A stretch of DNA of 64,000 nt from Microbotryum violaceum (lineage: Eukaryota). Shown here one piece after another: positions 5,670 through 60,800 of the stretch (positions are counted from its first letter, which is position 1; each line of letters starts with the position of its first letter). The notes under the pieces were generated by a model, which saw only the letters and a program-made list of their open reading frames with translations, did not search any database and was not told where the DNA came from. The stretch spans positions 1,736,001 to 1,800,000 of the forward strand of contig CDLV01000008.1 in assembly GCA_001244265.2 (NCBI GenBank), in the 5' to 3' direction. The position numbers and the translations under genes were made by a program.

Positions 5670-6426
5670 TTTGCGAAGGGGAAATGGGTTGATCTATGCA
5701 CGTGTGCCCATCGCGAACCAGCGCCGCAGCCCAGTTGACCCATGAAAGCGGAGCGGAGGGGAGGAGCAAGCAACAACGTAGAGGAAAGGAAGTGTAGAGT
5801 AGTATGGGTCAGTTCGGAGAGGAACAATGATGTAAAAGTCGGCCGATAACGTACATGAGGAGGGATAAGTTGCGGGAGCAAAGTGATGGGGAAGAAGCGA
5901 AGCCGTCAATGATCAAGCTCAGCGACGGTTCGATCACGTTTGTCTTACGCGCGGTAAGAGCGCATTAGCTCCTCTCACAATTGCGCCTTGCCGACCGCAG
6001 GCACCCCTGATTAGCAAGGCGACCTTGGCTCGAATTGTCCACCCCAGCCGACCCTAGGATTCGCTGCATCGCAAGTCTGCTCTCAAAACCCGAGCGATCA
6101 CCAAATCCAGCTGAACCATTCTCCTCAATCAAAGCTGACATAATCTGACGGAAATGCTCTCCGCCCTTCCGTCGGCTTTGGCCCGTACCGATGAATTTTC
6201 GGCTCACAGGGTATCCATTTTTGTCTGGAAGTTTGCCCGACGTAATTTCAACTTTCGGATTGACGTAAGATCTGCCCTCGAGGCTGGATCGTCAGCTGCA
6301 GCGAGCTCGTACTGTGATCGTAGTGGACGAGGAGCACACACTCCGGCCTGGGGGAGGATCGCGCATTGTCGTCGCATGCGATCTTCCCAGGAGAACAAAT
6401 TATTGTAAAATGTTCTCATGTGGTAA

Positions 6427-6545
6427 CTGATGAAGACCACGACTCAGTCCAATGGAACGGGACGAGAACAGAATGAGTAGGATTCCAGAGAATGCATACC
6501 TGATGAAGACCACGACTCAGTCCAATGGAACGGGACGAGAACAGA
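6427..6545 (-). repeat. 46-bp perfect direct repeat (period 73) whose unit is intron-shaped; possibly inside a solo LTR (~6428-6698)
   Basis: CTGATGAAGACCACGACTCAGTCCAATGGAACGGGACGAGAACAGA at 6427-6472 and 6500-6545. The surrounding segment has TG...CA ends but no clean target-site duplication. Confidence 0.85.
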
Positions 6546-7806
6546 GTGGCCAAAGGCTAAGGGACAAACTCCAGAAGGACTAGGAAGGGATGATAAGCGG
6601 AGACAATAAAGAGCTAATAGTGACTAAAAGGGTAAGACAAATGAGGTGCTGAAGGGATTCATGAAGTCGCTAGAGGCTCAAGATGAAGTGCCATAACAGG
6701 TACTATACGTAGACTGAAGGACGATGCAACCATATAATGACACAAATCAGCCAGTTTTGATGAAGACTTGGCTTGCGGCGGCTTGATCTTCATTCAGATT
6801 GAGTGTGGGTACGAGGTGCGCAGTGAGACATATTGGCGCAGACCCAGTCTGTGTGACGAACACGGGGTCGACCACGAGATCATTGAGCAATTCACGGAGT
6901 ATACCTCGCGAATACGTAGAGCAGCACCTCAGTCAAGTCACACTTGAACATTGTTTCCTCGGAGATTGTCTGTCAAATCTCCGTGTTCTGTGGAATCGGA
7001 TTCGGACCCGCAAGGCATTGGCGCCAACGCCACCGTCAAACCCCTCTCCGAGTTTGACGACTGCCGTGGGGCGAGTCACTCGTGGCGTACGCGCTCAGTC
7101 ACACTTGCCTCGGACTCTTTGCAGCGCTTCGCGGGGGGGATGCACACGTTATCTACAATTATGGAGAGATACGGGCGATGTTGGAGAGGCGAAGGGGTTC
7201 GGCCCATCGGGCGAAAATCCGAGGGATTCATGTCACGGAGAGGAGGTGCGATCGCGGCGGGACGAGGGTGCGCGGTGCGATCATGGCGTTTCGCTGGTCC
7301 AGCCTGCCAGGTACGTCCAAGCCAAGTTGGTGGCGTAAGAGACATGGTCTCAAGTTGATCGACGATTTACCTGATCTCAGCCCTGCATCTATTCGTGTCG
7401 ATGGGCACAGACTGCAGGACAATGAAGCGAGCCGTGACTCATTCGAGGCAGAGCCCGATGAGATGTATTGGAAGCATATCCAGGTACAGTGCGTGGCCTC
7501 TACCAGAAGTATTCGATAAGTTTGACTTTTGGCTGCATGAACCAGGGAATGATTGCTTCCGCAAGGTGGGAGCCGGCGAGGTAGACAACAAGAATCGGGA
7601 CAGACACTCATCTCATCCACTCCGATCCAAGAAGGCGCAGTCGCTCTGCAAAGAACAGGATTCTTGATCCAAACATGATCGTTACAATGACTCGTCTGAC
7701 CTTTACACAGCCGCGAATTCAGCGATTCAAGAAGATATGTCCCGGATACAACGACTCTAGCCAAGCGATGGAACGACTATACAAACACCGTCTCGAACCC
7801 TCCACC

Positions 7807-13173: not shown

Positions 13174-13273
13174 ACTACTAGGGCTCGTTTGCCTTTATTT
13201 TGACGGCGTGGCGCACTGGCGCAACTACTAGGGCTCGTTTGCCTTTATTTTGACGGCGTGGCGCACTGGCGCA
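13174..13273. repeat. Perfect 50-bp tandem duplication upstream of the ABCB gene
   Basis: ACTACTAGGGCTCGTTTGCCTTTATTTTGACGGCGTGGCGCACTGGCGCA at 13174-13223 and 13224-13273. Confidence 0.95.
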
Positions 13274-41168: not shown

Positions 41169-43153
41169 CGGCGGCTCCCGTGTTGCGCAAATCTCCTAGC
41201 TTGATGTGTTGAGTGCTGTGCGGCCAGGTGGGCGTCGCCGATGACGAGCGCGGGCCGAGATGCAAGCCTCGATGAAATACCGCGGTCTGACTCGTATACG
41301 GCGCTTTGGCGGTGTCCCAGGTAGCGCGAATGGACCGGGATGAGCTAACTCAGTGGTATGTTGCCGTGCCAAGTGGTGTAGCGGTGCCTAGGCAACCTAT
41401 CGCTGTCCCGACGTGTGGACGCGCGCCGCCCCACTTCATCGTCAGGCTCTGTCGACTCTGTCGGGCTCTCCTCTCCACTGTTTGACGGCGCCGGCACAAA
41501 TAAATTGTGTTTTGTGGCGGCCCCAAGAGAAACGGATTCAGTCCTTCAGACTCGTGTAGCATATGAACAAAGGCACGACGTATGCGTAGCATTTTGAGGA
41601 CACAGACTTCTCACGTGACTTATATATTCACCCGGCACTCCCAGCCCCTCTCAGAAGCATCTGCGAGATGAAAAGAGCAGAATGCAGCGGCATACATCTT
41701 TACCATCGATCGATCTCGGACCCCACTCACGATCGGGCCCCACATCAGCGCATCAGCAATGAGCTTGCAGAGCTTTCTCCCCGTGCAAACTGGCTGGCAG
41801 CGAGCGCGCTAGCTGCGCGGTTCTTTAGCCTGGACTCAGAATGGGGCATTCGCCGACGCCGTCGCGACTCGCCGTCGACGGTCGATTTTAGCACGTATAG
41901 ATAGATACCTTGGTTGAGTCCCCAACTTAAGGACTTATTTTCTCGAGGGGCAATGCGCCTTATCATCTGTCAATTCCAAAAGTTAAGTCTTCATTGGGTG
42001 AGACTTAATCTGGCTGTCACACTTCCTCAACTGTGGCAGGATCTCGGAAAAAATTCTGGCAGCTGCAGGCCGATTGGCTCAGACAGAACCGCCGAAAGAG
42101 TTTCAAACGGGCGGCTTTCCTAGTCTCGGCCGCGGATGATAGTGGGGGCCAGAAAGATAAAGATGACACCTTCGAGGTTGTTTCCGGGTTTTATCGTGTG
42201 TACAAGTGTATATCGCTGTCGTCGGTCGACTGGCGAGCGTCCTTCTTGTGGTCACCCGTCCGGTGACACCAACAGCCTGAGATCAGAGTTCTGCCTGATC
42301 AAGGAACCGCTAGGAGCGCAATCCACCTGGTCTGGTCACTGACCCGTCCAGATGGACTTTGATCGATTGATGGTGGCGTACCTTCCACGGCTAGTCTCTA
42401 CAGCGATAGGCCACAACCCCAACGCTTCTGCCTACTTCGAATATTCGCTGATTTTTCAATCTGGTCGCCAGTGGTCGTCCTCAGCTGGCACAGTTACTAC
42501 TAAAGTGTAGAGGGCTGCTGCAATGCTAGTATGGGTTTCACTACCTACTAGAGCTCACGTCACGTGCTTCTACGATCAGGTGATCACATGATCATCACCG
42601 CAGTGACCGCACGGCAACCCGCACCAGACCGAGGTATTTCCGTAACGTTTCATCAACCTTCGCAGTGGGCCGTTTGAAGAGGCTGGTGCGCTAGCCAAGT
42701 TTCCCAAGTTACAACCCACCCGCGCAGGCAGCTGTCGTTCGCGCGCTCTGATTGGCCACCCCCGCCTCCACGTCCCGTGCTCCCGTGCGCCTGCCCACGC
42801 AAATAGGGCCAGCGCAGCAGAATTGGCCAGTGTGGGGGTGGGACAAGGAGCCCTCCCTTCCGCCCCGCCAAAAAAAGTGCCAGTGCCCGGCCGATCTTTT
42901 TCGGACGCAGAATGTACTCCTCGACCCCATCAAGTTTCACTACCCCAGCCGTTGGTCGAAGTCCAACTCTCTCCCCCTCTTCCTCTCTTTCACCACATCC
43001 CTGCACGATCAGTCACTTTTAAGTTTTCCGAGCCCATTATCTCGTTGCCTGTCCCCCCTGACCGGCACAAACTAGCGCAGCCCCTTTTCCTGCTCACCCC
43101 TCTCACCACTCGGCCACCCCTCACCCACTCCTCATTTCCTCTTACCCACGAAA

Positions 43154-44665
43154 ATGGCTGGCGGTGGTGCAGTTACTGGCGTCAAGGCCACTGGCAACGT
43201 GACCAAGCGACAAGAATACTTCGCCTTTGGTCTTGTCACCTCCCTCTTCTTCCTGTAAGTTGATTCGAATATATCCGACTACGCTCGAGCCTACCACGCG
43301 TCGTCACCGCCCTTCAGCCGCTAACCGCTTCCTTCTCCCATCTACAGCTGGGGTTTTTCATATGGTCTCCTCGATGTGTGAGCCTCGTAGCTACCGGAGC
43401 AGACTTTATTGAGAGTCTGAAGCTGACCTCAGACCTCCTCTTCATGCCGACGCAGCCTGAACAAGCATTTCCAGACATTCTTCGGCATCACCAAGCTCCA
43501 GTCGACCCTGCTCCAGGTCGCCTACTTCGGTGCCTACGTCGTCTACTCGCCCGTGTGCGGCCAGTTCATCTCCAAGTTTGGTTACAAGAAGGGTATCTAC
43601 ATGGGTCTGTCGTTGTACTGCATCGGTGCGCTCGGCTTCTGGCCGTCGGCCAAGTTTGAAAAGTATGGTGGCTTCGTCGCTTCCGCCTTCGTCATCGCCT
43701 GCGGTCTCGCCACCCTCGAGGTCTGCGCCAACTCGTACGTCACCGTCCTCGGTTCGCCCGAACAGGCCGCGTTCCGCCTCAACTTCTCGCAATCGTTCAA
43801 TGGTCTCGCATCGTTCGTCGGCCCCTTGATCGCGTCCAAGTACTTCTTCGGTGACGAGGCGACGCAACATTCGCTCGGCAACGTCCAATGGGTCTACCTC
43901 GCGGTTGCGTGCCTCGGCGCTGCGGTTATGGTCCTCTTCTTCTTCGCTACGTTGCCCGAAATCTCCGAGGACGACATGAACGCGCAGCAGGCCGCCGCCG
44001 GTTACGTCGATGACCGCCCCCTTTACAAGCGCCGCCACACCGTCTTTGGCTTCGTCGCTCAGTGGATGTATGTCGGTGGCCAAGTCACCCTCGCCACCTT
44101 TGTACTCAACTACCTCACCGACAAGCACGACTTCACGACCGCGCGCGCGTCGCAGCTCTTCTCGTTCATGCAAATCACCTTCATGGTCGGTCGTTTCGCC
44201 TCAACTCCGCTCTTGCGCTTCTTCAACCCCGCCACGGTCCTAGCCGTCTACGGTGCGATGTGCTCCATCTTCACGCTCGTCGCCGCGCTCAAGGGTGGCA
44301 AAGTTGGCCTTGCGTCGCTCTTCATCGTCTTCTTCTTCGAGTCGGTTTGCTACCCTACGACCTTCACGCTCGCGACGAGCAACCTCGGCAAGTGGACCAA
44401 GCGAGGTGGGTCGCTCGTCATCATGGGTGTCGGAGGAGGTGCCATGTTCCCCCCTGTCCAGGGTGCGATGGCCGACAAGACGGGCAGTCAGCTCTCCTAC
44501 CTCATTCCCTTCATCGGCTTCCTGTTCGTCTTCGCCTACGGTCTCGGCATGAGGTGGTACGCCCTCAAGTTCGAGCAAAAGCAGCTCAACACCGAAGCCG
44601 CTCCCCCCACTCTGACCCGCACCGAGTCGGACAAGGCGTCCGCCGAGGAGGTCGAAAAGTTTTAG
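43154..44665 (+). CDS. MFS sugar transporter, FucP/GluP (L-fucose permease-like) family, copy 1
   Basis: Exons 43154-43254, 43348-43377 and 43456-44665 give LFFLWGFSYGLLDVLNKHFQ...LQVAYFGAY...GLATLEVCANSY...RLNFSQSFNG...QWMYVGGQV...FFESVCYPT. Confidence 0.93.
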
Positions 44666-47600
44666 ACGGCCTCTTCGCATCTCGTCTTCGTGTGCGGTCA
44701 ATCATTCCGGTGTCCAGTGTTGTGTGCAAAGAAGGGTCCTTCTTTCTGTCTGTGTAATTTCGTTCGCATTTATATTCTCTTTGGCTCGTTTTCCCTCTAG
44801 TAGCATTTCACTCCTTGAAACAGCCGTCGATGTCATAACACAGTCTTTATTACTAACTTCCCGTATTGTGAAGCTTCTCTGCACAGCCTTTGGCTGCATG
44901 GATTCGGACGTAGTAGTGCGGCGGTCCGACTTGCATCGAGTAAACAAATTCGGCGCAGCCTCCTGGACTCAGAAACTGTTCGTCAGGCCATTCTTAGGGG
45001 TCTTGGAAAGGGCAGGGAGTCTATATTGCTGCTGCGACTGCAGGGACCGCTCCGCTAGTCTATCTGCCATTCTTTTCCATGCCAGAGCAAAATCTTGATC
45101 ACCCGGGCTACGGCGCCGAGGCCAAGCGCAATTTATGAGCGGCACGGAAATACACCCCCACGTACCTCCCTCACGTGACCCGGGCGGCCGGGCCACTCGC
45201 ACGATTCCGAGCCAACAGCGATGCATGGTGATTCGTTATACCAGGACCTACCGTATCGAGGCCCGAAGGTCGTTAGGTAGTCTGGTACCTATCTGGTCCA
45301 GAACACCCTCGGCAAATACCGGTATGGGAGACAACATCTGCAGGGGTCCCGCTCTAATCGTTGAATCGCGGATTGTGATCGGCCGGCCACCTCGGAACAT
45401 CTGAAATCTGCGGTCGATTTCGCCTGGCCACTGCAGCACCGCGGGCGACGCTCAACTCACTCGATCGTGTTGGGGCCGCGGGGGTTACGGGATCGGGCTT
45501 TCCTGGATCGAGACCAGCAGTTTGTGCGCGTTTTGCGAATGTAGCGCTCTTTTTTACTTGCCAGCTTGCGACTGCGACTGCGACTGCCAATTCCGCCTTG
45601 TCGATCAGCGCGGTCGGGCGTAAGCGCGGTCGAGATTCGGGCCGTTGGCTGTCGGGCGGGATCGATTTGAACTTGGTCGCTTCGGAGTCCGACAAGCGAC
45701 AGGCGACTGGCGGGTCTAGAGCCTCGATCGTCCAAGCGCCCCCAGAGAAAAAGTCGCTGCGCGAGGTGATTCGCTTACCCCGCCTCCAGGGCGCGGCTTT
45801 CCTTAGGTTCACGTATTAGTTTTTCCGCTTCCCCCAGTCTCGCCCGCCCTCGCCCGCACCTCGCCCCAGTCGCCCAGATCTTGGGAAAGCGATCTACGAC
45901 CTGGAGTGACCGCCCCCACCACCCCGGAGTATTGCCACAAAAGGGAGAAAGGGGGAAAAGCACCACACTTTCTTCAATCCACCACTTTTTCTCTCTCTCT
46001 TCTCCATCACTTCCTCCTCTCCAACTTCCCACCTACAACCCCGAGCTCGTCTCATCCATCCCGTGACAGGTCAGAAGCAACTTCGACCTCTTCCCGTCCT
46101 CCCCTTCACCCGCAACCCTTCAATCCCCTTTCCCCAACTCTCAACAATGGCTGGCGGTGGCGCAGTTACCGGCGTCAAGGCCACTGGCAACGTGACCAAG
46201 CGACAGGAGTACTTCGCCTTTAGTCTCGTCACCTCCCTCTTCTTCCTGTGAGTTCGCGCCGACTTTGGGTCTCGCCTCGGCACCTGTCGATCAGCTCCTA
46301 ACCCGGCGCCGCGCTTGTCCGCTTCCTTCTCCCATCTACAGCTGGGGTTTTTCATATGGTCTCCTCGATGTGTGAGCCTCGTAGCTACCGGAGCAGACTT
46401 TATTGAGAGTCTGAAGCTGACCTCAGACCTCCTCTTCATGCCGACGCAGCCTGAACAAGCATTTCCAGACATTCTTCGGCATCACCAAGCTCCAGTCGAC
46501 CCTGCTCCAGGTCGCCTACTTCGGTGCCTACGTCGTCTACTCGCCCGTGTGCGGCCAGTTCATCTCCAAGTTTGGTTACAAGAAGGGTATCTACATGGGT
46601 CTGTCGTTGTACTGCATCGGTGCGCTCGGCTTCTGGCCGTCGGCCAAGTTTGAAAAGTATGGTGGCTTCGTCGCTTCCGCCTTCGTCATCGCCTGCGGTC
46701 TCGCCACCCTCGAGGTCTGCGCCAACTCGTACGTCACCGTCCTCGGTTCGCCCGAACAGGCCGCGTTCCGCCTCAACTTCTCGCAATCGTTCAATGGTCT
46801 CGCATCGTTCGTCGGCCCCTTGATCGCGTCCAAGTACTTCTTCGGTGACGAGGCGACGCAACATTCGCTCGGCAACGTCCAATGGGTCTACCTCGCGGTT
46901 GCGTGCCTCGGCGCTGCGGTTATGGTCCTCTTCTTCTTCGCTACGTTGCCCGAAATCTCCGAGGACGACATGAACGCGCAGCAGGCCGCCGCCGGTTACG
47001 TCGATGACCGCCCCCTTTACAAGCGCCGCCACACCGTCTTTGGCTTCGTCGCTCAGTGGATGTATGTCGGTGGCCAAGTCACCCTCGCCACCTTTGTACT
47101 CAACTACCTCACCGACAAGCACGACTTCACGACCGCGCGCGCGTCGCAGCTCTTCTCGTTCATGCAAATCACCTTCATGGTCGGTCGTTTCGCCTCAACT
47201 CCGCTCTTGCGCTTCTTCAACCCCGCCACGGTCCTAGCCGTCTACGGTGCGATGTGCTCCATCTTCACGCTCGTCGCCGCGCTCAAGGGTGGCAAAGTTG
47301 GCCTTGCGTCGCTCTTCATCGTCTTCTTCTTCGAGTCGGTTTGCTACCCTACGACCTTCACGCTCGCGACGAGCAACCTCGGCAAGTGGACCAAGCGAGG
47401 TGGGTCGCTCGTCATCATGGGTGTCGGAGGAGGTGCCATGTTCCCCCTGTCCAGGGTGCGATGGCCGACAAGACGGGCAGTCAGCTCTCCTACCTCATTC
47501 CCTTCATCGGCTTCCTGTTCGTCTTCGCCTACGGTCTCGGCATGAGGTGGTACGCCCTCAAGTTCGAGCAAAAGCAGCTCAACACCGAAGCCGCTCCCCC

Positions 47601-49914
47601 CACTCTGACCCGCACCGAGTCGGACAAGGCGTCCGCCGAGGAGGTCGAAAAGTTTTAGACGGCCTCTTCGCATCTCGTCTTCGTGTGCGGTCAATCATTC
47701 CGGTGTCCAGTGTTGTGTGCAAAGAAGGGTCCTTCTTTCTGTCTGTGTAATTTCGTTCGCATTTATATTCTCTTTGGCTCGTTTTCCCTCTAGTAGCATT
47801 TCACTCCTTGAAACAGCCGTCGATGTCATAACACAGTCTTTATTACTAACTTCCCGTATTGTGAAGCTTCTCTGCACAGCCTTTGGCTGCATGGATTCGG
47901 ACGTAGTAGTGCGGCGGTCCGACTTGCATCGAGTAAACAAATTCGGCGCAGCCTCCTGGACTCAGAAACTGTTCGTCAGGCCATTCTTAGGGGTCTTGGA
48001 AAGGGCAGGGAGTCTATATTGCTGCTGCGACTGCAGGGACCGCTCCGCTAGTCTATCTGCCATTCTTTTCCATGCCAGAGCAAAATCTTGATCACCCGGG
48101 CTACGGCGCCGAGGCCAAGCGCAATTTATGAGCGGCACGGAAATACACCCCCACGTACCTCCCTCACGTGACCCGGGCGGCCGGGCCACTCGCACGATTC
48201 CGAGCCAACAGCGATGCATGGTGATTCGTTATACCAGGACCTACCGTATCGAGGCCCGAAGGTCGTTAGGTAGTCTGGTACCTATCTGGTCCAGAACACC
48301 CTCGGCAAATACCGGTATGGGAGACAACATCTGCAGGGGTCCCGCTCTAATCGTTGAATCGCGGATTGTGATCGGCCGGCCACCTCGGAACATCTGAAAT
48401 CTGCGGTCGATTTCGCCTGGCCACTGCAGCACCGCGGGCGACGCTCAACTCACTCGATCGTGTTGGGGCCGCGGGGGGTTACGGGATCGGGCTTTCCTGG
48501 ATCGAGACCAGCAGTTTGTGCGCGTTTTGCGAATGTAGCGCTCTTTTTTACTTGCCAGCTTGCGACTGCGACTGCGACTGCCAATTCCGCCTTGTCGATC
48601 AGCGCGGTCGGGCGTAAGCGCGGTCGAGATTCGGGCCGTTGGCTGTCGGGCGGGATCGATTTGAACTTGGTCGCTTCGGAGTCCGACAAGCGACAGGCGA
48701 CTGGCGGGTCTAGAGCCTCGATCGTCCAAGCGCCCCCAGAGAAAAAGTCGCTGCGCGAGGTGATTCGCTTACCCCGCCTCCAGGGCGCGGCTTTCCTTAG
48801 GTTCACGTATTAGTTTTTCCGCTTCCCCCAGTCTCGCCCGCCCTCGCCCGCACCTCGCCCCAGTCGCCCAGATCTTGGGAAAGCGATCTACGACCTGGAG
48901 TGACCGCCCCCACCACCCCGGAGTATTGCCACAAAAGGGAGAAAGGGGGAAAAGCACCACACTTTCTTCAATCCACCACTTTTTCTCTCTCTCTTCTCCA
49001 TCACTTCCTCCTCTCCAACTTCCCACCTACAACCCCGAGCTCGTCTCATCCATCCCGTGACAGGTCAGAAGCAACTTCGACCTCTTCCCGTCCTCCCCTT
49101 CACCCGCAACCCTTCAATCCCCTTTCCCCAACTCTCAACAATGGCTGGCGGTGGCGCAGTTACCGGCGTCAAGGCCACTGGCAACGTGACCAAGCGACAG
49201 GAGTACTTCGCCTTTAGTCTCGTCACCTCCCTCTTCTTCCTGTGAGTTCGCGCCGACTTTGGGTCTCGCCTCGGCACCTGTCGATCAGCTCCTAACCCGG
49301 CGCCGCGCTTGTCCGCTTCCTTCTCCCATCTACAGCTGGGGTTTTTCATATGGTCTCCTCGATGTGTGAGCCTCGTAGCTACCGGAGCAGACTTTATTGA
49401 GAGTCTGAAGCTGACCTCAGACCTCCTCTTCATGCCGACGCAGCCTGAACAAGCATTTCCAGACATTCTTCGGCATCACCAAGCTCCAGTCGACCCTGCT
49501 CCAGGTCGCCTACTTCGGTGCCTACGTCGTCTACTCGCCCGTGTGCGGCCAGTTCATCTCCAAGTTTGGTTACAAGAAGGGTATCTACATGGGTCTGTCG
49601 TTGTACTGCATCGGTGCGCTCGGCTTCTGGCCGTCGGCCAAGTTTGAAAAGTATGGTGGCTTCGTCGCTTCCGCCTTCGTCATCGCCTGCGGTCTCGCCA
49701 CCCTCGAGGTCTGCGCCAACTCGTACGTCACCGTCCTCGGTTCGCCCGAACAGGCCGCGTTCCGCCTCAACTTCTCGCAATCGTTCAATGGTCTCGCATC
49801 GTTCGTCGGCCCCTTGATCGCGTCCAAGTACTTCTTCGGTGACGAGGCGACGCAACATTCGCTCGGCAACGTCCAATGGGTCTACCTCGCGGTTGCGTGC
49901 CTCGGCGCTGCGGT
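43325..49914 (+). repeat. Near-perfect tandem segmental repeat, period ~2994 bp, about 2.2 units
   Basis: Identical ORF sets recur at an offset of 2993-2994. The only differences noticed are single-base homopolymer length changes (C6 vs C5 near 44450/47445; G5 vs G6 near 45482/48475). Confidence 0.95.
46147..47658 (+). CDS. FucP-like MFS transporter copy 2 (chimeric; 1-bp deletion near 47445, either a real frameshift or a sequencing error)
   Basis: Exon 1 and intron 1 are identical to copy 3 and the 3' half is identical to copy 1. TTCCCCCTGT versus TTCCCCCCTGT shifts the frame after GGGAMFP. Confidence 0.85.
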
Positions 49915-50659
49915 CATGGTCCTCTTCTTCTTCGCTACGTTGCCGGAAATCTCCGAGGATGACATGAACGCGCAGCAGGCCGCCGCCGGCTACGTCGACG
50001 ACCGCCCGCTCTACAAGCGCCGCCACACCGTGCTTGGCTTCATTGTTCAGTGGATGTACGTCGGTGCCCAAGTCACCCTCGCGACCTTTGTACTCAACTA
50101 CCTCACCGATAAGCACGACTTCACGACCGCACGCGCGTCGCAGCTCTTCTCCTTCATGCAAATCACCTTCATGGTCGGTCGTTTCGCCTCGACCCCGCTC
50201 TTGCGCTTCTTCAACCCCGCCACGATCCTGGCCGTCTACGGTGCGATGTGCTCCATCTTCACGCTCGTCGCCGCGCTCAAGGGTGGCAAAGTTGGCCTTG
50301 CGTCGCTCTTCATCGTCTTCTTCTTCGAGTCGGTTTGCTACCCTACGACCTTCACGCTCGCGACGAGCAACCTTGGCAAGTGGACCAAGCGAGGTGGTTC
50401 GCTCGTCGTCATGGGTGTTGGAGGAGGTGCCATGTTTCCCCCTGTCCAGGGTGCGATGGCCGACAAGACGGGCACTCAGCTCTCTTACGTCATCCCCTTC
50501 ATCGGCTTCCTGTTCGTCTTTGCCTACGGTCTCGGTATGAGATGGTACACGGCCAAGTTCGAGCAACAGTTGCTCAACGCCGAGGCCGAGGCCGGTGTCC
50601 CCACCCTCAACCGCACCGAGTCGGAAAAGGCTTCGGTCGACGAGGTTGAGAAGTTTTAG
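49141..50659 (+). CDS. FucP-like MFS transporter copy 3
   Basis: Intact frame. Diverges from copies 1 and 2 from 49915 onward (TVLGFIVQWMYVGAQV; C-terminus NRTESEKASVDEVEKF). Confidence 0.93.
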
Positions 50660-50965
50660 ATGGTTTTAGTTCCTCACGGGTTCAAAGGGTCTTTCTAGGG
50701 GTTCATACATGCGCTTTATCAGTTTGGGGCTCTTCTCGCATCGCAGTACACTTTTTGATGTTTTTCATTGACGCAATACAATGCGCGGGCTGCACATACA
50801 TATACCACAGCGGTTGCCATCACACAAGAGAGCAACCTTAATGCAACAGGGTAGCGGAAGCGATATCTGATTGCCTACCATGGTAAGTCTTGCTGCTGCG
50901 ATGATGCTCACAGTCCGGTAATTTGACGTTTGATGCAAGAAGTATTGAAACTGAACAGCGATGTG

Positions 50966-51173
50966 CTGAACGAGTTGGCGGCAGGGACGAGCCAATGAGT
51001 TCGTAATCAAGTGAAGATTGCAATAAAGGAGTTCTTCACATACCTGAATGAGTTGGCGGCAGGGACGAGCCAATGAGTTCGTAATCAAGTGAAGATTGTA
51101 ATAAAGGAGTTCTTCACATACCTGAACGAGTTGGCGGCAGGGACGAGCCAATGAGTTCGTAATCAAGTGAAGA
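50966..51173 (-). repeat. 78-bp tandem repeat, about 2.7 copies, intron-shaped unit; possibly inside a solo copia-type LTR (~50967-51265)
   Basis: Units start at 50966, 51044 and 51122, with two substitutions. A minus-strand TGTTG at 51265 is a plausible LTR start, but no target-site duplication was found. Confidence 0.9.
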
Positions 51174-51574
51174 AGAGGAGACAAAGACGCGAATCGCGCG
51201 CGCGACTAATACAAAGTGGAGACGCGCGTAGTGCGGATTTAAGGCAAGAGTAATTTACTTCAACAAGAAGACATGCTTGGTCGAATGAATCTTGAAAAAC
51301 TAGACGTGTTATGACATTCTCTGGCCTATGTGGATGCACTGCTCCGGGCCCCATCGTAAAAGTCGCGAGGAAATGGCCCGATTTTGACTTGCCAGGCTTT
51401 GCCTCGGTTTGCCGAGGTGGGGGTCGCCCCACCTCGTGCCTCCTCGTGCCGTGGTGCTTGCGCTTCCGTCTCTCCGCGTCGACTCCGTCAGCTGTGGGTT
51501 CGCACGGCGGCGCGTCGTTGATCACCCTCATACACTCCGCAGCCGTCCGAGTTCAAGCGCTAGGTTCCATAGAC

Positions 51575-54500
51575 ATGTCGTTCTCAACGATGCGAGTGAT
51601 ACGGACTCTGCCACGCGTTCGACGCTCTACAGCGTCACCAGCGACATCTGTTCTCAGTCGAGTCGCGCGCTGCCCCACGACGACCAAGACCGCTGTTCGA
51701 CCCTTCCACACGACACTAGCCGCTCGCAAGTCCCCGTCGACAGAGCTTGTCGAGCCGGAAAGGAAGGATGTCTCGTCCAATGAGAATCCGACCCCACAGG
51801 AGAAGCCGAGAGCGGAACATGCCGTCATCAGTGCGTTTGGTACGTAGACGATTGGTTCGACGCTCACGCCGACAGCAGGCGCTCTGGGGTCGAGCTGATA
51901 AGGATTTCCGCCTAGTGATATATCCCCGGATGTCTGCGTGCCCGCGATTCCGACGTGGTCTCTGACAACGTCTGTTGTAATAATGCCCACACAGACTTAT
52001 TTTCCATTGGTGTCGGGCCGAGCTCCTCCCATACAGGTGGGCGCATAAGTTGATCCTCTTTCGCACGATAGGAGCTGACCTGCTCCCCACTAAACCATAT
52101 GACCGCTCGCCCCTAACTGCACTGTTGCTCTATCGGGTCTCAGTTGGACCTATGCGAGCAGGAAAGATCTTCGTCGAGGACCTCAAAGAGCTCGGGATCC
52201 TGAAGGATGTGCACAAGCTCAAGATCGGGCTGTATGGGTCACTGGCTGCGACGGGCAAAGGTCACATGACACCGCAGGCCGTTGTCCTCGGTCTCGAAGG
52301 CGAGGATCCGGAAACGATCGAGTACGTTCTTCGGGGTCGGAGAGCCTGTAACCAGCTCTGACTATTCTGATGCTCATCATTCGCACCTCCTGATGGACAG
52401 GCCTTCGACGATCCAGTCGCGGTACGCCTCGATTTTACAGACACATCACTTGACCCTAGCCGGCGAGCACTCCGTCGTCTACGATCAGGACAAGGATATG
52501 CTATGGCGGAATGAGCCATTGCCGACCCATCCCAACGGAATGAGGTACGCTTTGACTGTTTCGCGTGGAACGAAGACTCGGCTGACGCACCGAAAAATCT
52601 TTACGCTGCAGGTTCTCGGTCTATGCCAAGACAGGCGACTTGCTGGCTGTGAACGAGTATTTTTCAGTTGGCGGTGGTTTCGTTGTTAACGATCAGACCA
52701 AAAGTGGGTCCAATAGTATATGCAAGCGTGGTAGGGATTAAGTTGACAGATGACTGCTTTCCCTTGCAGTTGACGAGAACCTGTACTATCGGGCTGTAAA
52801 GAAAAAGTCGGCCTCGTCGGCGCGGAGGGAGCAGACCCACGGTCTGGAGACAGACAGCAAGACCCAGGCATTACCCGCCCCTGGACAAGAGTCAAGTGCC
52901 GAAGAGGATGGACCGAGACCGACGGGACCGAAGCAGCCACCGTTCTTGTTCAGGAACGGGACAGAGCTCTTGGCGATGACGAAGAGACACAACGTCCGTT
53001 TTCTCTCTTTCTCTGAGATCGCAAGTTTTTTCGATGAGGTGTTAATCTATGGTCGTTCCAATACAGTTGACCATCGCTCAACTGGTGTGGGAGAACGAAC
53101 GGAGCGCGATGACGAGCGAGGAGATTTCCGAAGGGCTAATGAAGGTGCGGCCGAGTAATCGCGCAAAGTGCCACCCATGAACTCACACGACTTTTCTTCT
53201 CCGCGCTCAGCTATGGCGCACAATGGACGCTTCGATCGCTCAGGGCGTGTCCTCGACAGAACTCAAGCTGCCGGGAGGACTCGGTGTTCGACGGAGAGCT
53301 CCTGGTAGCTGAACATTCTTTTCTCCTCAAACGTCTGAGCGAGCCCATCACTGACAGCCTTCCATCGATAACAGGGCTCTACAGACGTCTTTTCAAAGGC
53401 TTCTACCCTTCCATATCCCCATCCGAGCCTTCCCAACCCGCCCTACCACCAGCAGCTCCTTCCTCGACTCTTACCATGGCCTCAGGGTTCAACTCGGAGC
53501 CGCCGCCTGAAGCCATCACTCGACTACCGTCCGGCTCGATCCGGAGGACACCGTTAGTCATCGGCTCGTTCGAACATGAGTTGGCACCCATCCCGTTCAA
53601 AAAGGCTGTGTTCCCCGGGATCGATTTCTTGAGCTGTTACGCCATTGCTGGTGAGGACCGTGATGACATGGAAGGTCAAGGAAAACATGCAAAGTGCTGA
53701 TGGTTTGCTCTTCGTGGGTCGAGCAGTCAATGAGACCAACGCGAGTGGTGGTAGGGTGGTTACCAGTCCGACATTGGTAAGCCATTTTGGCGTTTCTGAG
53801 AACTGCTCTCCAGATATCATGATCCTGATGCCCAAGTTTTGGTCGCGGTGCCATCAGGGTGCCGCTGGAGTGATTCCAGCCGTTGGCAAATACATTGTCG
53901 AATTCATCTCGGACGATCCCGAAGGAGATATCAAGACTTTCCTGCTGACGGCCGCGGCAGTGGGGATGCTGTACAAGCGAGGAGCAACCATTTCAGCCGC
54001 CGAAGGAGGATGCGTGAGTCTGACACCCCGGCATCACGGCAGTGAGTGTCTTCGCTAATGGTGATTATCGCATACTGTGCAACCCACGTGACCAGATGGC
54101 CGAAGTTGGCGTTGCGAGTTCGATGGCGGCCGCTGGGTTTACAGCTTGCATGGGAGGTCAGTGATCACCGCGTTTCGAGAAATCCTCGAAGCCCCTCTCA
54201 GGACTTGATGATTCTCAATCAAACTGGACCGCCTTCAGGCTCACCTCAACAAATCCTCCAAGCCGCCGAAATCGGGATCGAACACTCTTTGGGTCTCACC
54301 TGTGACCCTCACGAAGGGTTGGTCCAGGTGCCCTGCATCGAACGCAACTCGATAGGTGCTGTCAAAGCCGTCGCGGCTGCGCAATTGGCGTTGGCTTCGG
54401 ACGGGAGACATTCGGTCTCGTTGGATGAAGCGATTGAAGCGATGGTGAGTGATTTCTTCCTCATAGCTCTTCATTCATTGAGATTAATCACGATCGCGTA

Positions 54501-54742
54501 TGCTTTTCATTCAGCGAGTAACAGCAAGAGATATGGTAAAGTCTCTCGCTGGCCGGATTCTTGGGGTGCTTAGTTGATGGGTTTTACTCGTCTCCCGCAG
54601 CACACACACTACAAGGAGACATCAATGTCGGGACTAGCCGTAGGTCCCGCTGTGATAGCCCAGTGTGAAGAGAATCATCTGATCGAGGCTTTCTCACGCG
54701 CAGACCTCTGTTCGGATTCCTCTCTCCTCGCCGGCTTGCTAA
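51575..54742 (+). CDS. Iron-sulfur-dependent L-serine dehydratase (SdaA-type, single chain) with a probable mitochondrial presequence
   Basis: [93 protein letters not shown]...[19 protein letters not shown] and a C-terminal Cys. More than a dozen introns. Confidence 0.93.
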
Positions 54743-54880
54743 CGTTTGCACTATGAATGGTGACCTCTACGGATGGAACTGTGGAACGATGATCCTGTGC
54801 CTTGTTTATGATTGCAATAACAACCTTGTTTCTGATTGCGATACCCCTTCTAATTGGCACCTCCATTGAGTTCAGTCCGA

Positions 54881-57800
54881 TCATAGCTCGTCCTTGACCG
54901 GCACGACGACCGTGTCTTGGACATGCTCCCCAACGGGCCTCAACTCGACCTTTTCACCCTCGTCACTCTTCTCCTTGACAAACGCGTCCAATTCCTCCTT
55001 TTGGCCCTTGGCCTGACCCAACTCATCCGCCTTACCACCGAAAACTCCCACCCCTTCATCCTTCTCGATTCCACCAGTCTGTTTCTGTTCCGCCGCGACC
55101 CTCTTCGCTAACGCAGCGACCTCATCATCGTAAACCGTCCACTCAGGGATCAACCTCTTGGCCCTTCTCAACTTGGGTTCATGAGTCAAAGGGTTATTAC
55201 ACAGATCGATCGTCTTGGCCTGCGCGAGCGAAGCGTCCGAACACCACGTCTCGCACCATAACCAAGATTGATCGAGCGTATAGATCGGGATTTGGTCCTG
55301 CATGTCATTGGGAAGATCTTGGTCGAGGTTCGCTAGCGATTTGGGGTCGGCCGAAAGACCTTGATATTGTTGACGTAGACGGTCACCGGCGGCCATGGCG
55401 CGGAAACGGTCAAGGTCGACGACGTACAAAGCTGAGATGTGGTAAGGCTTGCCGCGGAGATGGTCTGGAGTAAAAAATGATCGAATTAGCATGGAGGTCT
55501 GCATACCAGGCTCTACGGGGGCCGACTCACCTCTCCAATAGCCTGACTTCCAGAATCGGAAGCGGTCCATCTCGGCTCGATCGTCTCCCATGGGAGTGTA
55601 AGCGTCTGTAAAGGAAGTACTACTTCGTCAGCAATACGTTCGAACAGAAATAAGTCGGCAAAGGATTTAATAAAAGGACTGACAAGGTGCTCCTTGAAGA
55701 TCAAGATCGACCAATTGCTTCAAGTCCGTCCGAACGATCTGCGAGAGACGTCTCACAGGTCAGACCACGAGAAGGCAAGCCCTTACCCCTCACTCAAGCA
55801 CTGACCTGATCCGAATCGACAAAGATGACCCTCTCTAACTCGAGCGGGAACAGCACGTCCAAGAATAAGATCTTGTAACCCCAAATGGTCCTCTGTTTCT
55901 CCTTTTGGGCCCTCAACCAATGCGGCCACTTGTACGTCACCAACTCGTACTCGAACCCATACTCTTTCGCGAGATGAGGGATGAAGGCTCGAAAGGAAGG
56001 CGAGAGAAAGTTTTGAATGAACCAGAACTTGACGGTCGATTGGGTATGTCGCATGACCGAGACGACCATGAGGAACGCCATGCGTTCGTACAAGAGCCCC
56101 GAAGCGACGGTAAAGACATTGATCTCGGCTTTTTTCTTGATCGCGAGCTCGGACTTGCGCAAGAAAGGGAATCTGCACAGTGAGAAGTGAGACCCAGGTT
56201 CAGCGACTCCCGCCAAGAGCACGTTCCTATCGGATTGTGCACGTACAAACTCTTGACCCGATCAACAACATTTTCCTGTGGGCCCTTCTTCGCCACACCC
56301 TTGTCCGTATCATCCAAAAGCTGCGTCAATCCATGCCCCTCGTTCCTCTTGAACCTAGGGAACAACGTCACGCCTTCAAAAGTCGTCACGAGGATCTCAT
56401 CACCCGCTTCTTCTACGCTTCGGGAGCTCCAGCCTTCGGCGCCGGTCGTTTCGATCGAGTAGACTTGAGAACTTTGGCCTTCCCTGATAGCGAGGCGCCA
56501 GGGTCCGGGACTGGCCTTGAATTGGAAATAACCTAGGTTGGCCATGACGATCGTACTGCGGAATCATCGTCATCAGAACACCCATCACATGTCGGTCAGC
56601 TGTCGAGGCACCACTAAGCTCCAAGAGCGAACCTATCCTAAAACTCACTCGACTCGGTGTTGGTCCTCCTCCTCCGTCACCTCCTTCACCAACTCCAACT
56701 GCAATCCCCTAGGTGGTGTATTTCCCGGCGTTTCCCTCGCATGCCCCTCCACCACCAAATTCTCCAGCTCGAATTCGGCCTCGACGCCTGCCTTTTTCGC
56801 CCAAAGCGGCAAATCCTTCAACCGAATGTTATCGAGATCATGGACCGATTTCTTAGGGAACGCAAGCCAGGCTTTTGGTGTGTCCATCGCGAAAGTGAAA
56901 AGGACGTCTTCGGGGAGGTCGGTGAATTGGACCTGGGGTTGTTGTTCGCGGCCTGTGGAAGGGTCGAATTGAGGAGAGGAAGCAAAGGTGAAAGCGTAAA
57001 ACCTCTTGATGGGTAGATCCTGATTCTTCATCGTAGGGATCAGGTGAACCCTCAAATGTACCGACTCGAGTTTCGAAAGCGTTTCGATTATCGGCGCCCA
57101 TCTTTGAGCCAATTCCGTCGCAGGGTCGACCACCACAGCGATTTCAAACATCGCTTTTTCCTCGTTCGGACCAATGATAGCCGAATGCTCAGCTTGGAAC
57201 TCGAGATAATCCCTCGATCGCTCAATCGAGTCTTCGCCCGCTAGACCACCTGATGGATCGACCTCGTACGCTTGGACAATGACCGACGTGGCGAGCGCGA
57301 CCATGTGAGCCCAACTCGATCGATCGAGTGATTGGAGGTCCAAATCAACGTTACGTAACGTTTCGACGACAGCATCGATCCTTTCTTCTCGTTCGTACGA
57401 GACCAAATTATTCAAATCCTCAATCGTCATATCATCCTTCTTCAATGGCCCCACCACACGACCATTAACGACCACCCCCGATTGACCCCTTTCGAACCCA
57501 AAACGTTGGGCCATCACCATCGCCGAAGTCCACCATTCCCGAGCCAAGATCGACGTCTTGTGATTCGCACCGAGTTTGACGTGCTTCTTGATGGGGTTTT
57601 CATCGTCCCATGAGTCCAATATGAGTTGATTGAGGTCGTCGATGTTGGTTTGATTGATATCGAGGCGGACGAAGCGAGAGAGTTCGGAAGGTAAGAGTTC
57701 GACCAATTCGTCTTCGGCGTGCAAGAGGTAAATCAAATTCGAGACGGCCCAACGCGAAGGGAGTTCTTGCTCGTCTTTGAGCGTGGGGTTATGGAGTAGA

Positions 57801-60800
57801 CTGAGCCTCGCTTCAGGGTGGGCTTGGACGTATTCCAACGCCGTGTGTACGAGTTGGCGTCCGTCACTTGAATCTAAATCCGCCACGACATGAAGGCTGA
57901 CAACTTGATCCAACTCGACGCCCTCCCCGAGCTCTAACCCTTGCTCATCTTTCAAAGAAGGTGCCGCCTCGATCCACGTCCCTTCAACGAACTCCCTCTC
58001 AACCCCCTCGAACACCTCCACAAGGTTCACCACCTTCAAAGGATTGGTTTCACTCGTAAACACGAACCGATTCCTCCTCTTGTGCGTCGTTGGAAGGTCA
58101 TAAAAGAAATTATCCACGTCCGTCTCCGAGGTGAGTTTTTCGAAATAAACCTCTTGTTGCTCGTATTGGACATGCGCGGATAAGGTTTGTTGCAAGTGTT
58201 GGGCCCATTCCTATGGGAGGTGGAATCGTTCAGTTCGTTTTGATCAGTGAAATTGAATTGGAGGTCCAAATCCGTCGGACCACAGCACGAGAGCAATTTA
58301 CGCACCTCATCAAACTCGAAAAAAGCGCCATTGATCAAGAACGCCCCAACCGAGCTCGCTTCATCGCTCCCCGTGACACCCAATCGCTTTGCATAAGCTC
58401 TTGCCTTGTTGATCCGTTCGGCCCCACTCGGTAATTCAAGGACCTGTGCGAACGATGCCAAGTGTTCACCGGATAGGTGCGTGTTCTCCGATATGAACGT
58501 TTCGTACGTCTTGCGTAGATGAGGGGCGGTAACGCGGTCTGTATCAAGGGTGTCGAGGAGCTGGTGAAAAATCACATCATAGTCAGCAAAAAAAAGGGGG
58601 GGCACCTTGTACTCTCCGCGTCCTTGGACCCCAACCTCACCTGTCCCAAGAAGCTCATCGTCCCCCCTCGCCCAATCGCCTCCGTCAAATACCAAAACAC
58701 CTTCGCGAACGTCTGTTCCGTACTCTCTTCCCCATCCTGCCCTCCACTTTGGCCCAACTTGGGTACCAAGCCGAACTTTATCGGGACTCCCCTCGAAACA
58801 AAATTTTGAACCTGCCTCGTCAAAAGTTGCAGTGTCGCTGGTTGGGTAAGGTCGAGTATGAATATGGCTTGGTTAAGGTTGAGCGCGACGCTGTTCATTT
58901 GTCCCGGATAGATGGGGTGTAAGAGCTGTGCAAAGAAACAAAGTAACAAAACCCGCGAAATCAGCCTTTTCGGAAAGGCTTCCGATCATCCAAAATGCGT
59001 CGTTCCCCCTCCCCTCCTCGCACCTCACCTTTTTCAAATCCTTCCCCCAACTTTGATACTTCCTATCCTTTTCCAAATCGTTCCACCAAAACACCACCCC
59101 CCTACCTTCTTCCCGATCACTCGCATCGAACAACTGACCTAAAACATGACTCGAAACCCTACCCGAAGGTTCTGTAACGATTTTCCCACCTGATTTCATC
59201 GTTTTGGAAATCAAAGGGTTCATGATGATTGCTCGAAGTTGAAAGGGGGAGATTTCGAATAGGGGAAGATGTTCTTGGTTGGGTTTGGTGAAGATACGTT
59301 GGAGTTGGGTTAAGAATTTACGTTCTTTTCTCATTAACCTGACTAACACGAAGGGGTCGACTTGCGCTTCGGGGATACGGACTCCGTTCAATGCGAAGGA
59401 GGGTTGTAGACCGGTTGGTAGAAGACTGTTTGTCTGGATCTCTTGTAATAAGTCGATTGGGACGGTCGGAACGAGGGAGGAGAGTTTGGAAGCGAGGAGG
59501 GGGAAGGATGAGGTGAGGCGCGTAAAGGCGCTCAAGGGTGAAGGGTCGGAGAGAATGTAGCAAGTTGATCTAACGCCGAGGAGGGGAATTTCTCTCTTCT
59601 TGATGGGTTCCATCTTGATCGCTTCGGAGGACTCGATCGATTCGTCAGTAGTGGCGGAGTCGTGGGCCCCTTCGAGCGAAGTCAGTCGATCATCAATGGC
59701 GAGGTAGTCGGATTTCTTGATGTCCAATCCTGCTCCATAACCACTCAACACCAAAGGTTCGTGCGCAGACCCAGCGGCTGACTTCCATCTCAACGCATAT
59801 TCGATCCTAGGCGGTTCTTGAACGGCGAGACGGGTGAGCAGTTCGTACCACTCGATAAAGGCCGGTGACGAGGGCGAGGCGTAAAAGATGACGAGTGGGG
59901 GTGGGGCCGAGGTCGAGGTCGAGGTTAAAGTAGGTGGTCGGGGTGAAAGATGGTCGAAAGGGTACACTTTGGGTCGGTTCGAGCTGTTGCTAAAGAAGGG
60001 CGACGGGCACATGAAACGCAAAGGATCAGAATCTGCGCTGTGGCCACCCCCGCCCCACATGGCCCCCCCACTTTAGACTGCGCGACCCGACGTACGCCGT
60101 GTTGGGCAAGGACAATCCCCCTTTTGCGTTCCTTTGTCCGTCTCCTAGTACGTTCCAAAACTCTGCAACCGAACATAGCCTATAACGACCGAGTTGGACC
60201 CAATTATCACACTCGGACTGCGGCGCCTCGTGAGCGACCGCGCCTGTACCCGTCGGCGTTGGCGTCGTCGTCGAGGCCCAAGCCCTCTTGGCCACGACCT
60301 CCATCGCCTGCAACCGTACGCTCGCCTCCTTCAGGCCCATCGCCAACCCCAACGACTCGACCAGAGCGGCGTTCGAATGACTCGGATCGTTCTGGTCGAG
60401 AAAGTGCTGCAGTTGATGCGAAAGCACGGTCCAAGCTTGGGAGGGATCGTGCACGGCGGTGGCGGAGGGGGAGGGTGAGGATACGGTGGTGGGTGCAGTT
60501 GTGAGAAGGGTCGATGCGTTGGATTGGATAAGGTGGGTTAGGAAAGGGTGCAGGAGCTGTCGGTCTTCGGTGGCGAGCGATTCGCTGCGAGAAAAAGGGG
60601 AACGAACGTCGTTTTCACCTGCCGGGTTCAACTTCGAGTTCCACCAGCGCGACCGGCAAGAGAATCATAACTCACAGGTACTGTACGACCAACGACGATG
60701 CTGCCCACGGTGTCTTGATTCGAGCCTGGACCGAATGAGCCCCGCCCGAGCTCGAGGTCAAGGTCGACGACGGACTGCCAGCGAGACAGGTCTGCATCAC

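Follow-up and report, generated by a model that had tools for sequence, protein, structure and literature searches.

A solo LTR of a Ty1/copia element in Microbotryum violaceum whose intron is probably rebuilt at strand transfer

Introduction

A retroelement that uses spliced RNA as its template is expected to lose its introns, and some of the retroelements that keep introns replicate from unspliced RNA. Penelope-like elements carry a 75-bp 5'-UTR intron near the start site in their pseudo-LTR, and the available text of that report gives the significance of its retention as unknown (PMC8557442). In foamy virus, according to the abstract, the R region of the LTR contains a splice donor that controls the choice of poly(A) site and that a different RNA fold masks at the 3' LTR (PMC3694450). 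In engineered split-intron retroviral vectors (Ismail et al. 2000), the duplication of the LTR during reverse transcription assembles a working intron, as outlined in the accessible part of a review (PMC3182074). Introners, including copia- and solo-LTR-derived ones, are presented in the excerpt available as mobile elements that have splice sites at their own ends and become introns of host genes (PMC12130899). In intron-rich basidiomycetes, the consulted portion of one study states that intron removal strongly lowers mRNA accumulation for most genes tested (PMC3744415). Our literature search, at the level of titles and the beginnings of abstracts and mostly without subscription journals, returned no description of an intron bracketed by an exon copy in an LTR. 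To our knowledge, Ty1/copia elements are not known to rebuild an LTR intron on each copying.

Here we analyse a tandem array in a 64,000-nt stretch of the Microbotryum violaceum genome (the window). The array had been noticed from the sequence as a series of abutting intron-shaped units, and the original prediction offered three explanations for it: integration of a circular intron after rolling-circle reverse transcription, recursive splicing with zero-length exons, or an LTR family that carries removable introns. We find that the array lies in a solo LTR of a copia element, and we consider it probable that the intron in this LTR survives reverse transcription because it is rebuilt at strand transfer.

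Results

The array lies inside a solo LTR

The array at 50966-51173 has the highest score of all 27 rows that Tandem Repeats Finder returned for the window (period 78, 2.7 copies, 97% matches, score 402), which confirms the predicted minus-strand array of 78-bp units running from GTATGT to CAG with a CTCAT word. Read on the minus strand, the three CAGs have their last base at 51122, 51044 and 50966 and are followed by GTATGT, GTATGT and CACATC, respectively; the array is thus flush at its 3' CAG, as had been described. A full unit is 78 nt long, and CTCAT begins 34 nt ahead of its end. The array is located inside a 323-bp solo LTR (51265-50943, minus strand) that starts with TGTTG, ends with TCAATA and has CTTCT on both sides. 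The splice-like GT..AG of the unit is on the sense strand of the element. The LTR of this family (family 1) is built of U3 (~97 nt), segment A (47 nt, ending in CAG), segment B (31 nt, beginning with GT), a second A, and U5 (23 nt). The LTR in the window is the two-unit form, with the following features:

50943..51265, minus strand: solo LTR of a Ty1/copia family, two-unit, 323 bp, TGTTG...TCAATA; copies elsewhere flank gag-pol with integrase before RT
51266..51270, minus strand: 5-bp target-site duplication CTTCT, upstream copy, flanking the solo LTR
50938..50942, minus strand: 5-bp target-site duplication CTTCT, downstream copy, flanking the solo LTR
51169..51265, minus strand: U3-like part, pyrimidine tract at its end, before the putative start site; unrepeated within the LTR, role putative
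51122..51168, minus strand: A1, putative exon 1 plus R region, 47 nt, ACTTG..TTCAG; occurs once in unit-less LTRs
51044..51121, minus strand: intron-shaped unit 1, the 31-nt spacer B (GTATGT..) and then an A copy ending in CAG, from the tandem-repeat scan
50966..51043, minus strand: intron-shaped unit 2, the extra unit, found in 4/90 parsed LTRs
50943..50965, minus strand: U5-like tail, 23 nt, followed in full elements by the primer-binding site, from comparison of copies

The 5'-most copy of the array had been described as truncated. It is segment A itself, which is present once even in LTRs without a unit. The units do abut without an exon in the window's LTR, as predicted; within family 1 this holds only for the rare two-unit LTRs (4/90).

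The solo LTR sits between an MFS transporter frame and a gene region with spliced RNA contigs of a relative. One host protein encoded in the window shares 99% identity with a Microbotryum protein, which makes the host a basidiomycete of the anther-smut type. A 2,994-bp block that includes the MFS transporter frame is present three times in tandem at 43153-50663, the copies being 93-98% alike; the frame is longest in the third copy, and this block array ends ~280 bp from the solo LTR. Elsewhere in the window, a 50-bp sequence stands as two perfect tandem copies at 13174-13273, just beyond the edge of a long minus-strand frame.

The array belongs to a Ty1/copia family

A genome search with the array gave 92 candidates, of which 40 were scored; they are often paired 4.4 kb apart. 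The 30 family 1 loci that were read are LTRs of 242-323 bp with common ends (TG..TA or TG..CA), and matching 5-bp target duplications flank 31 of 34 LTR pairs, which were paired by hand. Full elements have a primer site after the 5' LTR and a polypurine tract before the 3' LTR. The frame in locus L344 contains a zinc-knuckle-like region, Pol_BBD, gag_pre-integrs, rve, SH3_retrovirus and RVT_2; an RVT_2 match reached E 2e-53. The primer-site word matches the anticodon of tRNA-Met(CAT) genes, and we take one half of the host's own initiator tRNA to be the primer of these elements. The LTR ends, duplications, domain order, primer site and polypurine tract all fit, and the array's element is a member of Ty1/copia. 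It is not Penelope-like (GIY-YIG type), as RVT_2 and an rve integrase were found.

Of the family 1 LTR starts, 92 came from the search and 2 were added by hand; 90 of these 94 were parsed, and they carry no unit in 35 cases, one in 51 and two in 4. All four two-unit LTRs belong to the older subfamily. Both LTRs carry the unit in 16 of 19 pairs with at most two LTR mismatches, compared with 1 of 15 pairs with four or more (Fisher p 1e-5). The replicating form of family 1 therefore seems to carry the unit and to lose it later, with age and subfamily confounded in this comparison. Nine of the 34 pairs lack the unit in both LTRs, and one of these nine is young; unit-less LTRs appear to be mostly later losses. 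In mixed pairs the unit is missing from the 5' LTR in five and from the 3' LTR in three, and with these counts the idea of a 5'-biased loss was dropped. The joined A-U5 form, which is what splicing would give, exists as DNA in the unit-less LTRs. The unit is precisely missing in 28 exact pattern matches; we did not keep this as proof that it is spliced, since a deletion between the A copies yields an identical product. A degenerate pattern for the unit ends found only a minority of the copies.

The two family 1 subfamilies differ in A by a median of 3 of 47 positions, and the differences occur in both A copies. Within the younger subfamily, the two A copies are identical in 25 of 37 LTRs. Another two-unit LTR has its donor changed to GTCTGT in both units (n=1).

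Several further observations concern the distribution of family 1. Of the 92 searched LTR starts, 60 are on contigs C1 and C2 of G000, the two largest contigs listed. Older copies have many CG-to-TG/CA changes, like traces of repeat-directed mutation. At L069 a family 1 element is nested within a gypsy-like element, and at L114 an extra partial LTR is located ~450 bp into another element.

The unit resembles host introns

RNA data were contigs of four runs, compared with positions 50700-58300 of the window; two of them, X3 and X5, represent spliced RNA from a related strain or species that shows many differences. Joints in the RNA contigs revealed 19 host introns beside the array. Fifteen of these are shown; 14 of the 15 skip 64-83 nt and one skips 155, in agreement with the predicted likeness in length between the unit and real introns. 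The +5 position is G in 12 of the 13 resolvable host introns. Like them, the array unit has U2-type intron ends (GT..YAG, +5 G) and a length within 64-83 nt. The distance of its CTCAT word from the acceptor end (34 nt) is at the far edge of the range seen by eye in 13 host introns. The X3 and X5 contigs contain the LTR together with its primer-site and polypurine-tract junctions. None of the 15 joints shown, of 19, is in an LTR and no poly(A) was seen at loose ends, in contigs that cannot phase across the 47-nt repeat.

Splice-site phase recurs in other LTR families

The original prediction had pointed to a second, unrelated sequence of like architecture, and this is also an LTR. Its unit is at 6427-6499, 73 nt from GTATGC to CAG, with a 48-nt copy upstream. 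Comparison of copies gave the following features:

6401..6742, minus strand: family 2 solo LTR, 342 bp, target duplication ATTTG
6500..6547, minus strand: family 2 putative exon 1 (A1)
6427..6499, minus strand: family 2 unit, 73 nt, GTATGC..CAG, ending in the A1 copy

Family 2 (L070-L075) looks non-autonomous, with ~1.4 kb between the LTRs and one 319-codon gag-like frame in the copy read; its young copies are nearly identical.

The survey of phase was based on 52 of the 229 primer-site matches, which come from 50 loci, namely the first 30 on the list and 20 regions picked away from known families. The 52 matches form 13 clusters, two of which look like chance, leaving 11 LTR families. In seven of the 11 families, at least one copy has a direct repeat that ends at YAG and is followed by GT; no repeat was found in the other four families surveyed. 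All matches to the array that were inspected are copia LTRs and the splice-site phase recurs in further families, which upholds the third explanation originally offered, an LTR family carrying a removable intron. Across families and subfamilies the donors are GTATG, GTGTG, GTCAG, GTGAG, GTACG and GTTAG. In other words, the +5 G is constant and +3/+4 vary, as in host introns. Unit lengths are 64-82 nt, or 140 with the extra intron of family 4. RTs compared between families are 51-64% identical; the families are related and may therefore be of one origin, rather than independent inventions. In two families the last A is at the LTR edge, and the G of the acceptor is the first base of the primer site. 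Since the primer site supplies this G, only the 5' LTR holds a whole intron in these two families. At ~1527-1680 of L132 (element strand), a family 3 5' LTR has four head-to-tail copies of exon A (32 nt, without the final AG) before the donor.

Family 4 carries a second, unique intron

In family 4, a unique intron U of 67-70 nt (GTGAG or GTGAT..YAG) lies between the first A and the GTGTGT unit. The set comprised 77 LTR rows, a few of them from overlapping loci, and was collected with an anchor independent of both junctions. The forms are AUBABA (31), ABA (15), AUBA (15), A (13) and three longer forms (1 each). U abuts the next donor, GTGTGT, without an exon between them in 48 of the 77 rows, and there are 179 such intron starts genome-wide. 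The first and last A are alike around U, which sits between them as a unique middle intron, and the tail after the last A begins like B. Among the 48 rows that have U, U is doubled in one and the BA unit in 33. That U is rarely doubled and BA often is as expected from templates from which U has already been spliced out.

Homology between the interior of U and the unit was not significant against shuffles (p 0.03-0.64 in 6 variants). The loss of U from rows with a second unit was rejected as proof of splicing because a deletion gives an identical product. Genome-wide, family 4 has 286 first-A matches, with dense clusters on G000 contigs C1, C2, C3, C5, C9, C15 and C17 (L139, L142, L144, L148-L167); these clusters may be centromeres.

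Metagenome LTRs contain spliced copies

A primer-site scan of metagenomes gave at least 122 stretches, 80 of them with long flanks. After removal of 5 tRNA-Met genes, 19 redundant stretches and 2 short ones, 54 LTR ends were left. Four of these 54, among the matches listed (L222, L223, L283 and L298), have the order exon 1, a GT-AG intron of 50-55 nt, exon 2 of 9-24 nt, and a second GT-AG intron. This second intron (49-67 nt) ends as exon 1 joined straight to exon 2. In L223, the missing intron has no base common to either side of the join. With zero microhomology, slippage or tandem duplication cannot account for this join, and the precise removal of a GT-AG intron, as read from the sequence, would need splicing. 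A search free of splice motifs arrives at identical ends in the fossil LTRs, and 0 of 540 shuffles score.

Copia gag lies downstream of L222 and L223, and the Pfam scan of L283 gave no match. L222 and L223 are on one contig, and the four fossil LTRs, from three contigs, share bases after the primer site; they are probably one lineage. Among the matches listed, the remaining 42 metagenome loci have a spliced copy in 0 of 38 usable ends. The intron layout is patchy outside the M. violaceum genome. A donor word is present in 5 of the 54 metagenome ends (shuffled mean 0.85; 2 on the reverse strand), again among the matches listed. A scan of viral contigs gave 3 matches.

In the copia LTRs L225, L251, L265 and their relatives, a strong donor lies 48-53 nt upstream of the primer site and the first G of the primer site completes the acceptor, but there is no long repeat. 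Such repeat-less LTRs could represent an ancestral state.

The junction between B and the second A is variable

In Ty1, strand transfer leaves untidy ends. Among 36 one-unit LTRs of the younger subfamily, an 8-column window at the junction of B and the second A has 8 alleles, 7 of them common to at least two LTRs. The junction of U3 and the first A has one shared allele, and windows off the junction have at most 3. The junction allele is equal in both LTRs of 17/17 intact pairs. Therefore, it must be generated prior to integration. In family 4, 74 of 77 rows share the same 10 bases upstream of the first A and B has ~19 alleles, several of which end in bases that also precede the first A. The corresponding first-junction count for family 2 was not relied on, being constrained by the anchor and taken from a sample that favours unit-bearing copies (27/31).

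RNA folding and the putative poly(A) site

In most families, segment A adopts a hairpin fold; for the first A in the window's LTR, folded together with its flanks, z is -1.75. We compared the donor with and without U3 in 13 LTRs, with start sites set from the repeat boundary. By mean pairing probability of the donor, U3 beat shuffled U3 in 0 of 13. By the cost of opening the donor, a second measure chosen after the first had failed, U3 raises the cost in 12 of 13 LTRs, and in 8 of 13 this cost exceeds that of at least 97 of 100 shuffles. In 7 of 13, the start region is paired with the exon end through helices of 10-12 bp. For family 1, the masking effect of U3 on the donor did not reach significance (42 and 13 of 100 shuffles). 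According to the modeling, U3 would shield the donor of the 3' intron copy.

B holds TGCAA or TGAAA in 57 of 59 units, five of the six letters of the Cryptococcus poly(A) motif. In the available text, that motif is placed ~20 nt before poly(A) sites (PMC3990503). This analogy hints that TGCAA in B would place cleavage inside the second A.

Discussion

How an LTR intron could be rebuilt

Our data suggest a cycle in which ordinary steps of reverse transcription would restore the intron. Transcription would begin at the first A. At the 5' end of the RNA, the intron (B plus the second A) would be spliced out to give A-U5-primer site, a form for which the DNA fossils are support. The 3' end would keep U3-A-B, with cleavage and polyadenylation inside the second A, and the 3' intron would have no acceptor, as the RNA would end within the second A. 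Minus-strand strong-stop DNA (U5 plus A) could then land on the second A, and its extension through B, the first A and U3 would rebuild the intron as U3-A-B-A-U5. If an unspliced 5' end landed at the second A, a two-unit LTR would result. The extra unit at the window's LTR fits such an event; slippage or unequal exchange would give an identical sequence. The probable gain for the element would be an early intron for RNA made in an intron-rich host.

Because the repeat in this cycle is a copy of exon 1, it must span the start site to the donor, and this explains the phase at both splice sites. The recurrence of this phase, the splicing fossils, the variable landing junction, the likeness of the A copies and the young pairs with the unit together suggest, at the level of sequence, that the intron is rebuilt. 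We infer the start site, the poly(A) site and the splicing of the LTR, and the predictions were tested on DNA.

We also lean, with less assurance, towards a wider picture. In a fungal copia lineage, R may have become an exon copy and spliced RNA the normal template, with one or two introns rebuilt at each minus-strand transfer. Masking by U3, or an acceptor completed by the primer site, would confine splicing to the 5' end. The LTR would then record the start site, the donor and splicing intermediates.

Alternative readings

The alternative that survives best, which we hold to be unlikely, accepts that the intron is real and spliced from mRNA and supposes that the template is unspliced. The repeat would be a tandem duplication across AG/GT, as is reportedly the case in Rogers-type intron birth, kept alike by out-of-register transfer plus deletion. 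The coexistence of 0, 1 and 2 units is in line with this, out-of-register transfer would also produce errors at the B/A junction, and the tail of family 4 that begins like B and the three metagenome LTR types that lack a long repeat and have their donor 48-53 nt upstream of the primer site are consistent with it. However, where the tail lacks an initial GT, it does not explain why the repeat stops at the donor. In addition, it predicts a doubled U in family 4, found in 1/48 rows, and it cannot yield a copy that links exon 1 to exon 2 with the intron between them removed.

It is considerably less probable that nothing is spliced and that the array is an ordinary tandem repeat of an LTR with incidental splice borders. 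Such a repeat could be a hairpin R segment, or the LTR end plus a remnant of the primer site duplicated via template switching. LTRs commonly hold tandem repeats, in the part of the literature consulted (PMC3601003), and the hairpin in segment A of most families and the lack of spliced LTR RNA among contigs unable to phase the 47-nt repeat are compatible with this. Two families have GGTATG or GGTACG after the first A and the primer site, GGTTATG, after the last A; in these two, where the last A is at the LTR edge, the LTR end plus a primer-site remnant may be the origin of the repeat. The remnant, however, reads GTTATG with T at +5, and every donor seen has G there. In family 1, 23 nt of U5 separate the last CAG from the primer site, which speaks against the version of this origin that the original prediction had named as its refuting case. 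The unit lengths (64-82 nt, 140 with the extra intron of family 4) match host introns, and the microhomology-free GT-AG removal in L223 would need splicing.

That the purpose of the array is recursive splicing through zero-length exons seems very improbable to us. The second of the explanations offered originally does describe family 4, where the unique GT-AG intron U (67-70 nt) abuts the GTGTGT unit in 48/77 rows. At the window's locus the abutting units are incidental, and they occur in 4/90 family 1 LTRs, all of the older subfamily.

The first explanation, in which a circular intron is reverse-transcribed by rolling circle and integrated, would give an array flush at its 3' CAG with a partial 5' copy, and it is refuted at the window's locus: the LTR around the array has TG..CA/TA ends and is flanked by a target duplication, the 30 loci that were read are likewise LTRs (242-323 bp, common ends), 31/34 pairs have matching 5-bp duplications, and the partial copy is ordinary LTR sequence that starts at a fixed place and is found in unit-less LTRs too, which leaves this origin a negligible chance.

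Comparison with known systems

If a leader intron is rebuilt at strand transfer, this would solve the conflict of intron loss by ordinary steps of reverse transcription. Genome sequence would then reveal the start sites and donors of elements, and with each solo LTR a promoter-exon-intron cassette would come to lie beside host genes.

Like other Ty1/copia elements (Pseudoviridae) primed at the anticodon of tRNA-Met, the window family has LTRs, 5-bp duplications, a polypurine tract, integrase before RT, and RVT_2; it differs in that its LTR bears an exon-copy repeat that brackets a GT-AG intron. It shares with Penelope-like elements, as far as the available text describes them (PMC8557442), a short intron near the start site inside the terminal repeat of a retroelement. 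Penelope-like elements are, however, another element class, and in the window family standard strand transfer onto an exon copy would account for the intron's retention. Foamy virus resembles it in having an LTR donor with folds unlike at the two ends, U3-dependent masking being predicted here in 8/13 LTRs; in contrast, the foamy virus abstract mentions neither a complete intron nor a copy of an exon within the LTR (PMC3694450). Split-intron vectors, in the reviewed account, are artificial and one-way, and their splicing removes the packaging signal, whereas the copia layout would be renewed in each cycle. Introners, as the excerpt presents them, have splice sites at their own ends; in the window family these sites are internal to the LTR and the intron is one of the element's transcript, and the whole element is not an intron of a host gene. 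On the available accounts, none of the Penelope pseudo-LTR, the foamy virus donor and the split-intron vectors is a self-renewing LTR intron.
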